The notes: generated by a model not told the origin, from the sequence alone. Positions 2,460 through 11,514 are shown, counted from the first letter of the stretch. The stretch: 13,276 bases of DNA from a virus (IMGVR_UViG_2703718848_000021:1-13276); one strand, 5' to 3'. Translations and numbers: made by a program.

Positions 2460-2481
2460 ATGCGGTAAAATATCACCGCAT
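2460..2481 (-). promoter_or_regulatory. stem-loop immediately downstream of the J-like gene
   Basis: atgcggt (2460-2466) pairs with accgcat (2475-2481), 8-nt loop; 7 nt after the J-like stop (2488-2490) on the minus strand, followed by an A/U-rich stretch and the SD of the next gene. Confidence 0.3.
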
Positions 2482-2487
2482 TATTAT

Positions 2488-4761
2488 TTAGGAAACTGAG
2501 AATGTGCCAGTACCGCGAGTAATTAGCATAACTGGTGCACGTACTTCATATTTTGACAATAAACTACCTAAAGTAACTGTTACTTTCGCCGCTACACTGT
2601 TAGCTGTAACACCCTTAAATGTAAACATATCAAAGAATTCTAGTGCTGTATTTGAAGAGTTATAGTAGTTACGTGTAATAGTTTGTCCATTACATACAAC
2701 TGTAACTGTTGCAATTTTAACACTGGTAGAAGTCTGGAATGATACAAAGCCAGATAAAAACAATGAAACAGTTTTATTATTGGTTAAGCTACCAGCATCT
2801 TTATAAGTGATGGTCTGTGTACCCGTCCAGTTATTCACAGCTGTAGAACCAGACCATGCATTACCTGTACCCATGTTTACTACGTCACCAATGAAGCTAG
2901 AAGCCTCTACAGTACCTTTAAACGAACCACTTGATGCATAGACAGCACCACGTACTGTAACGTTGTTAAACTGTGCTGTACCTGCCTTATTGATCTGCCA
3001 TCCAGCACTACCACTAACAAAGTTTGTACTCTGGATAGTGTTAGCTATTTTAGCAGTGGTGATCTGTGCATCACCAATCTTTGCAGTGGTAATAGTTGCA
3101 TCTGCTATTTTTGCTGCGTTAACAGCAAGATTTGCTATTTTAGCGTTAGTCACTGCAAGATCTGCAATATAGGCTGTACCTATTGATGCGTTCTGAATCA
3201 TCGCCGTTTTCAAATATGTAGTACCGTTAACAATAGTAAATGGTGCACTACCACCAGTACTAGCAGTATCATTACCAGCGATCACGAATTTATTAGCTGC
3301 AAAATAAATCGCACTGTTATTATTCGTACCACCAGCAATTAATTTAAACCCAGCTACAGTACCGTTAGCATTGACTGACAATGTATAAGATGCGTTAACT
3401 TCAGTTTTAGTAGCAAGTGTAGTCATCTGTTGGTTAACGCTTGCAAAACTACTATCAGTACTAGATTTTAGCTGATTAATTGCCGTAGTTTGTGCTGCGT
3501 CATTATCTGCTACTGTCTGTGTAAGAGTTGTAATATTTGCTTTGTTACCATTTGCTGTACTTTCTACTGCTGTTATTTTCTGTGATAGTGATTGATCGAG
3601 ATTAGCTATTTGAGTACTCATTGTAACTTCACTAGCTGCAATCTTATCATCTAAACGTTCTTCTGCTGCTTCAATTTTAGTATTGGCATTATTATTAGCT
3701 GTATCAATTGCATTCGTTAATGTATTACTTAGACGATCATCTAGGTCTAGAATACTATTAATTTCATTTGCATCTTCTTCGGTAAACACATACTTACTAT
3801 TAAGTGATACAGTAAACTCTGGACAATAATTAATATTATCTACACCGAAAATATCATAGAATCCAACTTTAACTTGATATTCGCCATCAGCTAATGCAAA
3901 GCTATCAAATTCTGGTTTATTAGAAATGAAAGTTTGATTATTAACCGGACTTGTAACCTGAATAACTGCACCTGCATAATCACGTTCGGTAGATTGTTTC
4001 CACGAAACGAAGATATTACCAAAACCACCTGTAGCACCTACGTTTTCTGGCATACGACATTGCTTGTTCTCAACTGTTATTTTAACTTCTTCAGAGAATG
4101 TACCACTGGTAAAGCCTTGAGCAATTACACCAATTGTAGGTTTACGAATCTTAGTTTCATTAATTGCAAATGAGTAATTAAATGAAGTATCTTGTGTATA
4201 GTAAGTTTTAACTAATGTAGTGTCATCATACACATTAACAATATATGTTTTAAAGTAATCGCGGAATGGTCTACCCTTAACTACTAGATTCTTCTGGTTA
4301 TCCCATGCAATATTAAAATCACCACTATCTGTTTCATAAAGTCCTGCTGTCGCATTAGTTAGACGTAAACCAGTAATTGCAGGTAATGCAAAGTTATACC
4401 CCGGGGTTAAACCGTTTTCAGTTACTTTAGTACTGACAAATCCCAAGTTATTATATGCAGCTACACCGAAATCATAAGTTTGATTTGGATCTAAACTATA
4501 TAGTTGGTAGTTAGTTTGACCTACAGGTACTTGCCCTGCCATTGTCCAGTTTGTAGTACCAGTTTTGCGATAGTACACATAATAACCACGCAAATATGGA
4601 TCTGGTGAAGCGGTCCATGACATTTCTACTACGTTACCACTAGTGATATTGCCTAAGCGGTTAATTACTAGATTTGAAGGTGGCTTAACACCAAGTACAT
4701 TAAGAATACTACCATCTGGTGTCCATACACCGCGGATCTTTACCATCATATACGCCATCAT
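2488..4761 (-). CDS. host specificity protein / central tail fibre, lambda J-like, C-terminal portion of a frame-interrupted gene
   Basis: 757 aa. Fibronectin type III-like segment near the N-terminus (GVKPPSNLV...YYVYYRK...YDFGVAAYN), then a fibrous repeat region ([10 protein letters not shown]...[24 protein letters not shown]) resembling the lambda J C-terminal region. N-terminus continues the J alignment begun in 4709..5911 (query [10 protein letters not shown] vs lambda GVTPPAVQHL). Confidence 0.8.
3031..3180 (-). repeat. intragenic imperfect tandem repeat, about 30-bp period (10-aa fibre repeat TxAKIxxxxI)
   Basis: About five consecutive 30-nt units on the plus strand sharing a ttt(t)gc core, encoding [10 protein letters not shown] / [10 protein letters not shown] / [10 protein letters not shown] / [10 protein letters not shown] in the J-like protein. 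Confidence 0.4.
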
Positions 4762-5911
4762 TTGTAGTAGCTGCCGTAATAGTAATTAGACCTAGTGAAT
4801 CTTGCGATGTACTAATTTCTTTAGAAACGATTCTGTACTTATCATTGATATTTGGTTCATCAAGTACAATAGTAATACAATCGAATACTTTTAAATCCCA
4901 TGCTTCGGAAGTAGTGAAAGTTACTGTATTAGTACCGTAACGCATTTTAAGTAATTCGCGGTTGGCAAATGTTGCTAATTGCTCTTTGCTATAAATCCAT
5001 CCGAAATCTAGTGATTTAGTAATAACACGTCCATCTGCTGCAATAACTGCATTGTTTGTAATATCTGAAGGGAAACGTACTACATCTTCGCCATAGTTAT
5101 TACCTACTGCCGTATATTTTGCATCGATGGTATTACAGTAATCGTTAGAACCACTTGAAGTAATTTTAACATCACCAATAATATTGGTTTCATTGAATGT
5201 ATATAATGAAAGTGATTTACGTTCGGCCCCACAATAAATTTTACCAGCATGAATATATAGATAACCACCAAAGGTTTGCATGATTGCTTCGATAGTTTGT
5301 TTATATGTATCATTATAAGACATATTACCATTACTATAATATTCCATATCTTTACAGTACTGTGCTGTTGTACGGAAGCTATCGAGATCAATTAATGCAG
5401 GATCTAAACCCATACCCCAAATTGTATTAGTTAGCACTTCATAAATTTGTGAAGGTGGGTTAGATGAACACTTCATAGATAGATCTGCCAAATCACGAAT
5501 GATTAGACCTTTCATTTCTGTCTTCAGTACGTAGTTGTCATTAATTAGGATACTATCTTCTAAACTTTCTTGAGTTTTCTTAATTACACAAGAAATAGAA
5601 ACTACACCATTACCTTTAAAATTATTATTCCAGCGAGATCCGCCATACTGTAATGGAAGTGATTTAGAACCACTGTATGTACCACCAAAACGTACTTCTA
5701 ATTGTAGGTATGGCTGATATTTAGATTTAATCATCCAGTTTTCAACTTTACCATCTGCCGTAATTGGTACGTTTAGGATTGGTTCATCGTCAATATATAA
5801 TTGTTCAATATATTTTTCTGTACCACCCATTGCAATTAGATGTTCGGTGAATAGATACTGACTATTATCATCCTTGATATTCCACCACGGAATGATACTA
5901 CCACACATCAT
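4709..5911 (-). CDS. host specificity protein, lambda J-like, N-terminal portion of a frame-interrupted gene
   Basis: 400 aa. WGMGLDP...TAQYCKD matches lambda J YGMGKRLG...GQYCDQ, and the C-terminal YRIVSKEIS...[15 protein letters not shown] matches lambda J FRCVSIREND...ITAVQH...DNGAHFDG. Stops at 4709-4711 inside the start of the 757-aa ORF, which is in the +1 frame. Confidence 0.8.
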
Positions 5912-5948
5912 AAATGAACCACTATTTGAACTATCTTTATGTGGTAGT

Positions 5949-6194
5949 TCACCGTCCTAATAGAACTGGAATACCGCTTACTGGCGATGTACTTCTACTT
6001 ATACTAGTAGCTGCATCATCATAACCAGTTACCCCAAGTGCCGTTAATTGACTTGATGCAATGAAAGTAAGTGCACCCGCTGCTGCACCCCATGCTGCCG
6101 CTACATATAAACTTGCCCCACCAGTCCAAGCTGCCGCAAATACAGCTACCGCCGTTATAATCGCACTAAAAAAACCGCCGCCTTTGCCGCCCAT
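5949..6194 (-). CDS. tail assembly protein, resembles the hydrophobic C-terminal region of lambda gpI
   Basis: 81 aa. [30 protein letters not shown]...GIPVLLGR resembles lambda I AGAKSGGVFQIVLGAAAIAGSFFTAG...NVLPVLYGE. ATG 6192-6194 overlaps the upstream stop (TAATG) with a GAGG SD 6-8 nt upstream. Sits immediately upstream of the J-like gene, as I does in lambda. Confidence 0.5.
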
Positions 6195-10931: not shown

Positions 10932-10955
10932 TTGATTAATTCCTTATAGTGAAAC

Positions 10956-10972
10956 GGGGGAATAGATCCCCC
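10956..10972 (-). promoter_or_regulatory. GC-rich stem-loop downstream of the major tail gene (possible attenuator)
   Basis: ggggga (10956-10961) pairs with tccccc (10967-10972), 5-nt loop; minus strand reads GGGGGATCTATTCCCCC then GTTTCAC, 19 nt after the major tail stop and upstream of the G-gene SD. Confidence 0.3.
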
Positions 10973-10991
10973 TAAGTAAAAGTATTTATAA

Positions 10992-11444
10992 TTATTCTAC
11001 TAGACCAGTAGCTATTGGACCACCATCTACAGCGAGAACGAATTCACGGGTAACTACTGCATCTTTATCGCCACCAGTGGTAGAAGAAGAAATAAATGCA
11101 TTATAGATAGCATAATAACCTTCTGTGTGCGTACCGTCGGTGTAATAAGTGATCTTGTACTGAGCACGTTTTTGATCTTCGGCTAGTTGCAAGAGCTTGA
11201 TATGGGTAAGATTGTCCAGGAGATAGTTCACGGTTAGTGGAATATCACCTACAGATTTAGTGCCAAGGATTTTTCGATTATACACACTGTTAAATGTCAC
11301 AACGTCCACCACGACGCTTTCTGCACCCATAGTTGGGAATGCACCTAGTTCTGGGATAATTTCAAAATCAGTTGCAGGAGTGGTAGAACCTGCGGTATAT
11401 GTGCCAACTTCAACGGTAACGTTGGCCCCGTGCAAATATATCAA
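10992..11444 (-). CDS. major tail (tube) protein
   Basis: 150-aa ORF immediately upstream of the G/GT pair; size fits small siphovirus tail tube proteins. Call is mainly by synteny. Start unclear: the track start is TTG, 13 nt from the SD; an ATG with ideal SD spacing sits at 11449-11451 in the +1 frame. Confidence 0.65.
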   Translation of the reverse strand: MIYLHGANVTVEVGTYTAGSTTPATDFEIIPELGAFPTMGAESVVVDVVTFNSVYNRKILGTKSVGDIPLTVNYLLDNLTHIKLLQLAEDQKRAQYKITYYTDGTHTEGYYAIYNAFISSSTTGGDKDAVVTREFVLAVDGGPIATGLVE

Positions 11445-11487
11445 ATGCCATTTTTATTTCCTTATATAGATTTAAGTTATTAAGTAA

Positions 11488-11514
11488 ACGGGTACGTATA
11501 CATCATGTACCCGT
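11488..11514 (-). promoter_or_regulatory. stem-loop between the tail fibre and major tail genes
   Basis: acgggtac (11488-11495) pairs with gtacccgt (11507-11514), 11-nt loop; 10 nt after the tail fibre stop on the minus strand, followed by TTTACTT. Confidence 0.3.

Follow-up and report, generated by a model that had tools for sequence, protein, structure and literature searches.

Intercistronic stem-loops that stabilise messenger RNA (mRNA) are known from bacterial operons, i.e. the repetitive extragenic palindromic (REP) sequences of Escherichia coli malE-malF and the stem-loop of Rhodobacter puf. In phages, the late gene clusters of SPP1 are bounded by stem-loop terminators (PMC6316719), weak terminators balance expression in T7 (PMC9163698), and termination proceeds stepwise in LUZ7, where >60% of the terminators are below 50% efficient (PMC9163698). 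Terminators are further reported to increase the stability of upstream mRNA (PMC11696848). Here, we analysed a window of 13,276 nucleotides (nt), i.e. the whole stretch IMGVR_UViG_2703718848_000021:1-13276, in which all coordinates are counted unless a relative is named. It matches an E. coli prophage located in the chromosome at 98-99% identity and carries a tail operon, in which a sequence-only reading had placed short hairpins after the major structural genes. These structures exist, are enriched at gene junctions, favour the transcribed strand and are conserved in structure without conservation of sequence. They belong to a class known from phage late operons, and we give about an even chance to their being intercistronic stem-loops of the intrinsic-terminator type, serving as leaky terminators or 3' stabilisers among the late (tail) genes of a prophage of E. 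coli that derives from a temperate siphovirus.

All five predicted stem-loops were found on the transcribed (minus) strand, with folding energies of -11 to -17 kcal/mol, and the claim that hairpins follow the major structural genes was borne out, with four of them 2-19 nt past the stops of the fibre, tube, tape measure and J genes. Their stems had been given as only 6-8 base pairs (bp), whereas folding gives 6-12 bp. Hairpin 1 (11488-11514, minus strand; 8 bp, 11-nt loop, -11.3 to -11.9 kcal/mol) stands 10 nt past the fibre stop, between this stop and the tube gene start, and its stem ACGGGUAC/GUACCCGU is followed by UUACUUAA. Hairpin 2 (10956-10972, minus strand; 6 bp, 5-nt loop, -11.1 to -12.5 kcal/mol), 19 nt past the tube stop, has the stem GGGGGA/UCCCCC followed by GUUUCACU. 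Hairpin 3 (7805-7832, minus strand; 12 bp, two of which are G.U, with a UUAU loop; -16.6 to -17.1 kcal/mol) begins 2 nt past the tape measure stop, with a GC core and then UUUAUUAC. Finally, hairpin 4 (minus strand) has a 9-bp core at 2460-2481 (-11.9 kcal/mol), 6 nt past the J stop, and an extended form at 2454-2488 (-15.4 kcal/mol) that begins at the J stop codon itself; its stem AUGCGGUGA/UUACCGCAU is lengthened by A-U pairs and followed by AUUAUUAU.

The strong bidirectional terminator said to close the operon (2145-2181, fold at 2150-2177) proved canonical, with a hairpin and a U-run on both strands (plus-strand fold at -20.3 kcal/mol, minus-strand fold at -13.8; U-run CUUUUUUAUUUGUUUUUU, 2150-2177). 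It is flanked by T-runs on both sides and lies between the convergent genes for an 83-amino-acid (aa) protein and a lysozyme. The sense strand is favoured in hairpins 2-4, as seen from the sense and antisense energies of hairpin 3 (-16.6 and -10.7 kcal/mol) and hairpin 4 (-11.9 and -8.8 kcal/mol). Hairpins 2-4 and the 2150-2177 fold all have the stem of an intrinsic terminator (GC-rich, at least 5 bp, loop of 3-8 nt); hairpin 1 has a good stem, with an 11-nt loop outside the usual terminator range. Additionally, the feature expected of a 3' stabiliser, i.e. a stable hairpin in sense orientation directly after a cistron, is present. RNA processing had been suggested as well; RNase III sites are characterised by about 20 bp or more of near-continuous double-stranded RNA, so the stems of 6-12 bp (at most 15-16 bp with the A-U extensions of hairpin 4) are too short for classical sites of this enzyme. 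When both strands of the whole window were searched with the Rfam 15 covariance models, no match was obtained at an E-value of 1 or lower, and the window contains no transfer RNA or transfer-messenger RNA gene.

Each spacer was compared with 200 dinucleotide shuffles of itself. Shuffled sequences folded as well or better in 12, 11, 2 and 1 cases per 200 for hairpins 1, 2, 3 and 4, respectively, and in 2 of 200 for the bidirectional terminator. We agree with the sequence-only reading that each hairpin alone is weak evidence, hairpins 1 and 2 being the weakest and hairpins 3 and 4 better; combined by Fisher's method, the four give p = 1.3e-4. A hairpin is present in all four spacers of at least 50 nt, and none was found in the 32-nt (10600-10631) and 37-nt (5912-5948) spacers, for which 97 and 16 of 200 shuffles were as good. 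Sliding a 36-nt fold along the sense strand of the operon gave 15 hairpins at or below -11 kcal/mol, five of them intergenic; intergenic sequence makes up about 390 nt (3.5%) of the operon (binomial p = 1.2e-4), and this enrichment is seen although the spacers are its most A+T-rich parts. A simple terminator scan of the whole window stayed at chance level (9 against 6.3 +/- 2.1 expected from shuffles). With the overall count at chance and the junction enrichment at p ~1e-4, the signal resides in the placement of the hairpins and not in their number. A chance origin is ruled out by this positional enrichment together with the tests across lineages given below.

To compare the junctions, 12 lineages were considered, i.e. 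the clade of the window, L021, L007-L015 and phage DCP80. Close copies of the window came from IMG/VR and E. coli at 86-99% identity (L002-L006, L016-L020), and L021 is an E. coli locus at about 76%. The loci at about 50% protein identity comprise four viral contigs (L007-L010) and five chromosomal loci (L011-L015) of Enterobacter, Pseudocitrobacter, Phytobacter, Serratia and Rouxiella, with 38-39% G+C. E. coli phage DCP80, at 30-45% protein identity, is the only phage relative in the collection. A hairpin precedes the tube gene in 12/12 lineages, with a canonical T-run in DCP80 only and a partial one in the window. After the tube gene it occurs in 8/12, five of which carry T-runs (7 T in L011, L012, L013 and DCP80; 5 T in L021). 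After the tape measure gene it is again found in 12/12, about ten being canonical terminators, such as AAGCCCTCTCAAGAGGGCTT followed by TATTTTTTT in L007 or the hairpin of L015 at -20.6 kcal/mol. T-runs in the relatives reach 7-8 T at the post-tube and post-tape-measure junctions. The junction after J has a hairpin in 5/12 lineages. When each junction was ranked as a percentile among all equal-length spans of its own locus and the lineages were combined (Fisher), p was 3e-4 before the tube gene, 4e-4 after it and 9e-5 after the tape measure gene.

Stem sequences are unrelated from lineage to lineage. At shorter range, a comparison of the window with L021 shows compensatory change in three pairs of hairpin 3, both partners being altered, and 93.8% of the cells in its alignment are paired, against 27-62% for slid partner registers. 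One-sided stem changes in the close E. coli copies are C-to-U, giving G.U pairs on the sense RNA only. The stem of hairpin 1 is kept in the E. coli copies through one-sided, G.U-compatible changes, with a loop that varies from 11 nt in the window to 7 nt in L006 and 3 nt in L021. Hairpin 2 is invariant in the close copies, hairpin 4 keeps its stem with a variable loop, and the terminator at 2145-2181 is conserved in all E. coli copies. Taken together, the compensatory pairs, the changes that keep G.U pairing, the greater stability on the sense strand and the freely varying loops, the last as would be expected of terminators, show that selection acts on a sense-oriented RNA stem.

We infer from these properties that termination or stabilisation takes place at the hairpins. 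RNA polymerase moving along the minus strand would reach each of them just past a stop codon; some transcripts would end there, and the 3' hairpin would shield the upstream message from 3' exonucleases. The upstream gene, chiefly the tube gene, would thereby receive more and longer-lived mRNA than the genes behind it. The terminator at 2145-2181 would close the unit in both directions, and strong termination is expected only there, since the degenerate U-tracts of the window predict weak termination at hairpins 1-4. The arrangement is comparable to T-phi of T7 (after the capsid gene) and to the terminators of LUZ7 and SPP1, in that a sense-oriented, GC-cored hairpin follows the stop of an abundant structural gene by a few nt, read-through into the downstream genes would be expected, and canonical T-runs are carried by relatives. 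It departs from them in the degenerate U-tracts and the 11-nt loop of hairpin 1. As in malE-malF REP and puf, a stable hairpin stands directly after the gene of the most-needed product, i.e. the tube protein, and a strong U-tract would be unnecessary; unlike REP, the hairpins of the window are each unique and no repeated element is involved.

Several observations weigh against this interpretation. The 8 nt following the stems of hairpins 1-4 (UUACUUAA, GUUUCACU, UACUAAUA and AUUAUUAU) are degenerate, with 3-5 U, whereas in a terminator U-tract some 5 U or more are expected among the first 8 nt past the stem; hairpins 1 and 3 reach 5/8 only if counted from the GC core and hairpin 2 has 4/8. Hairpin 4 alone among the four passes a simple terminator rule on the sense strand. 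The hairpin is missing after the tube gene in 4/12 lineages, in which the genes abut, and after J in 7/12, so the elements are dispensable. Counterparts of hairpin 1 are devoid of a sense U-tract in 10/12 lineages and hairpin 1 itself is more stable on the plus strand (-13.5 against -11.3 kcal/mol); from these two facts, a role as attenuator is improbable. In lambda-like tails, the products of the tape measure and tip genes are both low-copy, and a terminator between their genes does not match virion stoichiometry. The conserved terminator thus separates two low-copy gene sets, unlike in T7, LUZ7 or SPP1, and stoichiometry does not explain it. Additionally, the motif ATAAATAC found beside the hairpins may restart transcription, and the genes of this copy are split, such that the hairpins may be out of use in the element of the window; both points are considered below.

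The chaperones have a separate device. The sequence-only reading had proposed that graded attenuation would set the ratios of tube, chaperone, tape measure and tip proteins. Xu, Hendrix and Duda reportedly described, in 2004, a -1 programmed frameshift for the G/GT tail assembly chaperones. Likewise, an A_AAA_AAA slippery heptamer (10635-10641, minus strand) lies just before the stop of the first chaperone open reading frame (ORF), which ends ...GAA AAA AAA TAA; starting at the A-run, the -1 frame stays open into the next ORF (10225-10599). The sequence GAAAAAAA(A/G)TAA was conserved between the tube and tape measure genes in 10/10 lineages checked. The apparent spacer is 32-35 nt long, of conserved length, without a hairpin and coding in the frameshift product; the frameshift site thus explains both its missing hairpin and its fixed length. 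The chaperone ratio is set by this conserved -1 site and not by the hairpins, which also counts against the proposed interpretation; the G/GT-type site is distinct from the hairpin set. The notion of graded attenuation is partly supported: it fits the post-tube and post-tape-measure hairpins, where relatives carry T-runs and phages provide precedents, probably does not hold for hairpin 1 and does not account for the chaperone ratio.

Among the alternatives, it is possible, if on balance unlikely, that the hairpins are inherited relics, which worked in an ancestral phage and lie idle in a decaying, non-inducible copy. Compared with the intact 800-aa genes of L019 and L020, the tape measure gene has gained 1 nt near 9872, which splits it; this insertion is common to six independent assemblies, and four others are intact. 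Fragmentation extends to the J, fibre, portal, capsid and terminase genes (L002 and L016 for the upstream genes), one copy has an IS5 insertion and another an IS2 insertion, and J is broken at different places in different copies. In the window, J is split by a frame change (4709-4761) where L005 and L007-L014 have a single frame. At the tube gene start, the ATG at 11449 with a good Shine-Dalgarno sequence is out of frame and the ORF was called from TTG 11444. The copy of the window may thus be defective. However, decay bears on the present use of the elements and not on their nature; the stems are intact in copies at 95-98% identity, with substitutions that keep pairing, some frame breaks are possibly assembly errors, and two copies have an intact tape measure gene. 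E. coli PapM-36-2 (NZ_CP050646) and GF3-3 (NZ_CP053259) are examples of carriers in which this gene is whole, and WGI31CT and MFDS1016424 have the allele of the window.

More doubtful is the view that, instead of one attenuated operon, the region consists of several units separated by terminators, each restarted from WATAAATAC, a promoter-like motif specific to the phage. At the fibre/tube and tube/chaperone junctions, where the motif comes first, a new transcript would have the hairpin at or near its 5' end, as a 5' stabiliser or an attenuator in the 5' untranslated region (UTR); at the tape measure/distal tail junction, where the hairpin comes first, a classical terminator-then-promoter cassette would result. 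Terminators within 5' UTRs have been reported for Pseudomonas phages (PMC10914365). On the minus strand of the window, the motif is represented by TATAAATAC (10982-10990), a candidate promoter-like element 10 nt upstream of hairpin 2; by TAATAAATAC (7792-7801), located 3' of hairpin 3, with 24 nt left to the start of the distal tail gene (7767); and by the variant AATAAATAAATA (11515-11526), which overlaps the fibre stop codon and abuts hairpin 1, ending 3 nt ahead of it. Another variant of WATAAATAC lies at 1689-1698. The motif also precedes the first packaging gene and the ORF at 1596, and in L016 it is found at 43797 and 35096.

The 32-kb prophage of L016 contains five copies of ATAAATAC, all five on the sense strand and all five intergenic, against an expected number of 0.30, and none of 5000 shuffles reached five. 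Over the 12 lineages, 34 motifs are sense and 3 antisense, mostly 20-45 nt upstream of start codons; such statistics are optimistic because the motif was spotted after the fact. Ahead of the distal tail gene, the motif recurs in L007, L011, L012 and L013. In L007, a reverse-strand gene and a bidirectional terminator part the distal tail gene from the tape measure gene, and the motif stands before the former; since the distal tail gene is cut off in this way, a restart is needed there. Additionally, the ATAAATA core is present at the pre-tube junction in 12/12 lineages, 1-15 nt before the hairpin except in DCP80, where it comes after the terminator.

The exact TATAAATA at 10983-10990, contained in TATAAATAC, which we take to be the T4-type late promoter core (placed at about -10 of late genes), and the strand-specific placement of the motif upstream of genes recall T4 late promoters. 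Unlike T4, this prophage of about 32 kb or more shows no gp55 or gp33 counterpart, nor any other sigma or RNA polymerase gene, among the 10 ORFs scanned; a 958-aa ORF considered as a phage RNA polymerase gave only weak, sub-threshold helicase-domain matches and was rejected. The motif is also a poor sigma-70 -10 element with no accompanying -35, its A-rich sequence coincides at two junctions with stop codons or with the A-tract commonly found ahead of terminators, and its spacing of 1-15 nt from the hairpin would put a T4-like start site inside the stem in some lineages. Reading AATAAATA as a mere terminator A-tract fits the post-tube junctions of L011-L013 and not the motif copies far from hairpins, and was discarded. 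Overall, WATAAATAC may be a phage promoter.

The pre-tube junction has a further peculiarity in the nine mid-distance relatives (L007-L015), whose hairpin displays AAGGA or AGGAA in its loop on wholly different stems. These hairpins lie at 2883-2904 in L007, 9936-9957 in L008, 9932-9954 in L009, 9934-9953 in L010, 9937-9964 in L012, 9958-9978 in L014 and 9939-9960 in L015, with weaker forms in L011 and L013, and precede the AAGGA Shine-Dalgarno sequence of the tube gene by 22-28 nt. A dual CsrA site consists of a GGA in a hairpin loop, 10-60 nt upstream of a GGA-containing Shine-Dalgarno sequence. Such a dual GGA arrangement is found in all nine relatives and not in the window, and the GGA-loop hairpin resembles a CsrA-type dual site or a loop-displayed Shine-Dalgarno-like element. 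The GGA loop is absent from the clade of the window and from DCP80; the loop of hairpin 1 in the window, AUGAUGUAUAC, contains no GGA, the clade having swapped out the AAGGA loop. That this low-GC family of temperate Enterobacterales siphoviruses would run its late genes from dedicated T4-late-like WATAAATAC elements in nearly every spacer, with the hairpins partly as 5'-proximal RNA elements of the restarted transcripts instead of terminators and a CsrA-type pre-tube geometry in the relatives, seems to us distinctly unlikely. If true, the CsrA-type dual site would link tube-protein synthesis to a global regulator of the host. Both WATAAATAC and the GGA-loop hairpin are more unusual than the finding of the hairpins itself.

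Hairpin 1 has also been considered as a terminator of antisense (plus-strand) transcription that would shield the upstream late genes, which we regard as very unlikely. Its plus-strand fold (-13.5 kcal/mol) has 10 pairs and a 7-nt loop and is followed by GTATATTTAT, the terminator scan lists it on this strand only, and every mid-distance relative has a T-rich tract on the antisense side, the complement of AATAAATAA. However, no plus-strand gene or promoter lies near hairpin 1 in the window, the antisense U-tract is interrupted, and the stem substitutions of the E. coli copies retain G.U pairs on the sense strand.

Least probable of all, and remote in our view, is that the inverted repeats act at the DNA level, where they would mark the borders of recombination or of modules or offer inserted genes a landing pad, and are not RNA signals. 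The loop of hairpin 4 (2464-2477 region), GATATTTT, occurs as its exact reverse complement AAAATATC in L006 and L018 on an unchanged stem, a flip best described as a small palindrome-mediated inversion of the 8-nt loop. A sigma-70 promoter noticed in this hairpin (GTGATA-16-TATAAT) was rejected as a conserved promoter, its -35 element being in the loop and inverted or replaced in relatives while TATAAT is kept. In five copies, the divergent 3' part of J regains 97-100% identity at the J stop and hairpin. Other mosaic breakpoints, however, fall inside genes or at hairpin-free junctions (for example in the tube gene, at ~7200 and ~100 nt before the fibre stop), such that only the end of J fits and hairpins were discarded as general breakpoints. 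The G.U pairs and one-sided C-to-U changes are, moreover, strand-specific, which argues for RNA and not for a DNA cruciform.

In five lineages, a reverse-strand gene directly follows the post-tape-measure hairpin, which could also be taken for a landing pad. It encodes a predicted membrane protein of 203-277 aa (L007, 6385-6996; L015, 13390-14223; also L008-L010), lies between the tape measure and distal tail genes and shares the hairpin, which serves both directions as a terminator. In the late operons of lambdoid and other siphoviruses, Hendrix and colleagues have described moron-type insertions with terminators at their flanks. The inserts of L007-L010 and L015 are like morons in sharing the post-tape-measure hairpin as terminator; unlike these loci, the window has the hairpin and no inserted gene.

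The prophage was found in 24-25 of 5,426 complete genomes and adjoins bssR in strain WGI31CT. Its length is at least ~32 kb, as seen in the L016 locus, its far end lying beyond the locus fetched. It has 35% G+C in the window, the whole element 35-39%, and host genomes exceed 50% G+C. No near-identical phage or plasmid record was found, the only matches being 179 bp of BF23 ltf and the distant relative DCP80. Terminase, portal and capsid genes lie upstream of the genes of the window and rule out an F-type tailocin. Between 13270 and 2182, every long ORF is encoded by the minus strand. Gene identities were taken from PHROG profile matches with some PGAP names; the PHROG matches agree with the gene labels of the sequence-only reading, which were correct.

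The operon, on the minus strand, opens in the window with the C-terminal part of a tail fibre (11525-13270, PHROG; stop codon at 11525-11527). The major tail (tube) protein (10992-11444; phrog_158, PGAP 'phage tail tube protein') follows between hairpins 1 and 2, and then tail assembly chaperone gene 1 (10632-10931, PHROG) and the second small ORF (10225-10599). The tape measure gene is in two parts, an N-terminal piece at 9834-10238 and the remainder at 7835-9820 (PHROG). Next come the distal tail protein (7204-7767, PHROG), a further tail protein (6581-7225; phrog_2048, PGAP DUF2163), two small ORFs placed as lambda K and I (6194-6571 and 5949-6194), the J-like central fibre in two parts (4709-5911 and 2488-4761, PHROG) and the 83-aa DUF2730-like protein with transmembrane and coiled-coil segments (2182-2433). 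The convergent lysozyme gene occupies 1698-2144 on the plus strand, and past it an ORF at 1222-1596 encodes a SegE-like GIY-YIG endonuclease.

The fibre gene precedes the tube gene, which is an unusual order. The N-terminus of the long fibre protein is a second tube-protein-like domain with about 30% identity to the tube protein (L002, 6436-7683), also present in L003, L005, L006, L008-L011 and L013-L015. Within the fibre gene, 179 bp (11916-12094) are 98.3% identical to ltf (L-shaped tail fibre) of the T5-like phage BF23; the genomes are otherwise unrelated, and a fibre segment seems to have been exchanged recently. A very stable 17-bp hairpin (L002, 5767-5806; -30.3 kcal/mol) is located some 4 kb beyond the end of the window, on its upstream side. 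The 333 nt that hold it separate the capsid gene from the annotated ORF that comes next, and the hairpin is probably part of a small unannotated ORF. Finally, the prophage has a SLATT and SMODS nucleotidyltransferase pair (L016, 35176-36476) with the appearance of a defence cassette, flanked by the packaging genes on one side and by a gene for an HNH endonuclease on the other.

If the hairpins are leaky terminators or 3' stabilisers, as we propose, no concept would be changed; they would provide another case of a siphovirus setting tube-to-tip expression without separate regulators, and would aid annotation and the sourcing of weak terminators. The comparison across lineages is more useful than the single window, in that it reveals junction-specific RNA hairpins that persist over about 50% protein divergence while their sequences have fully turned over.

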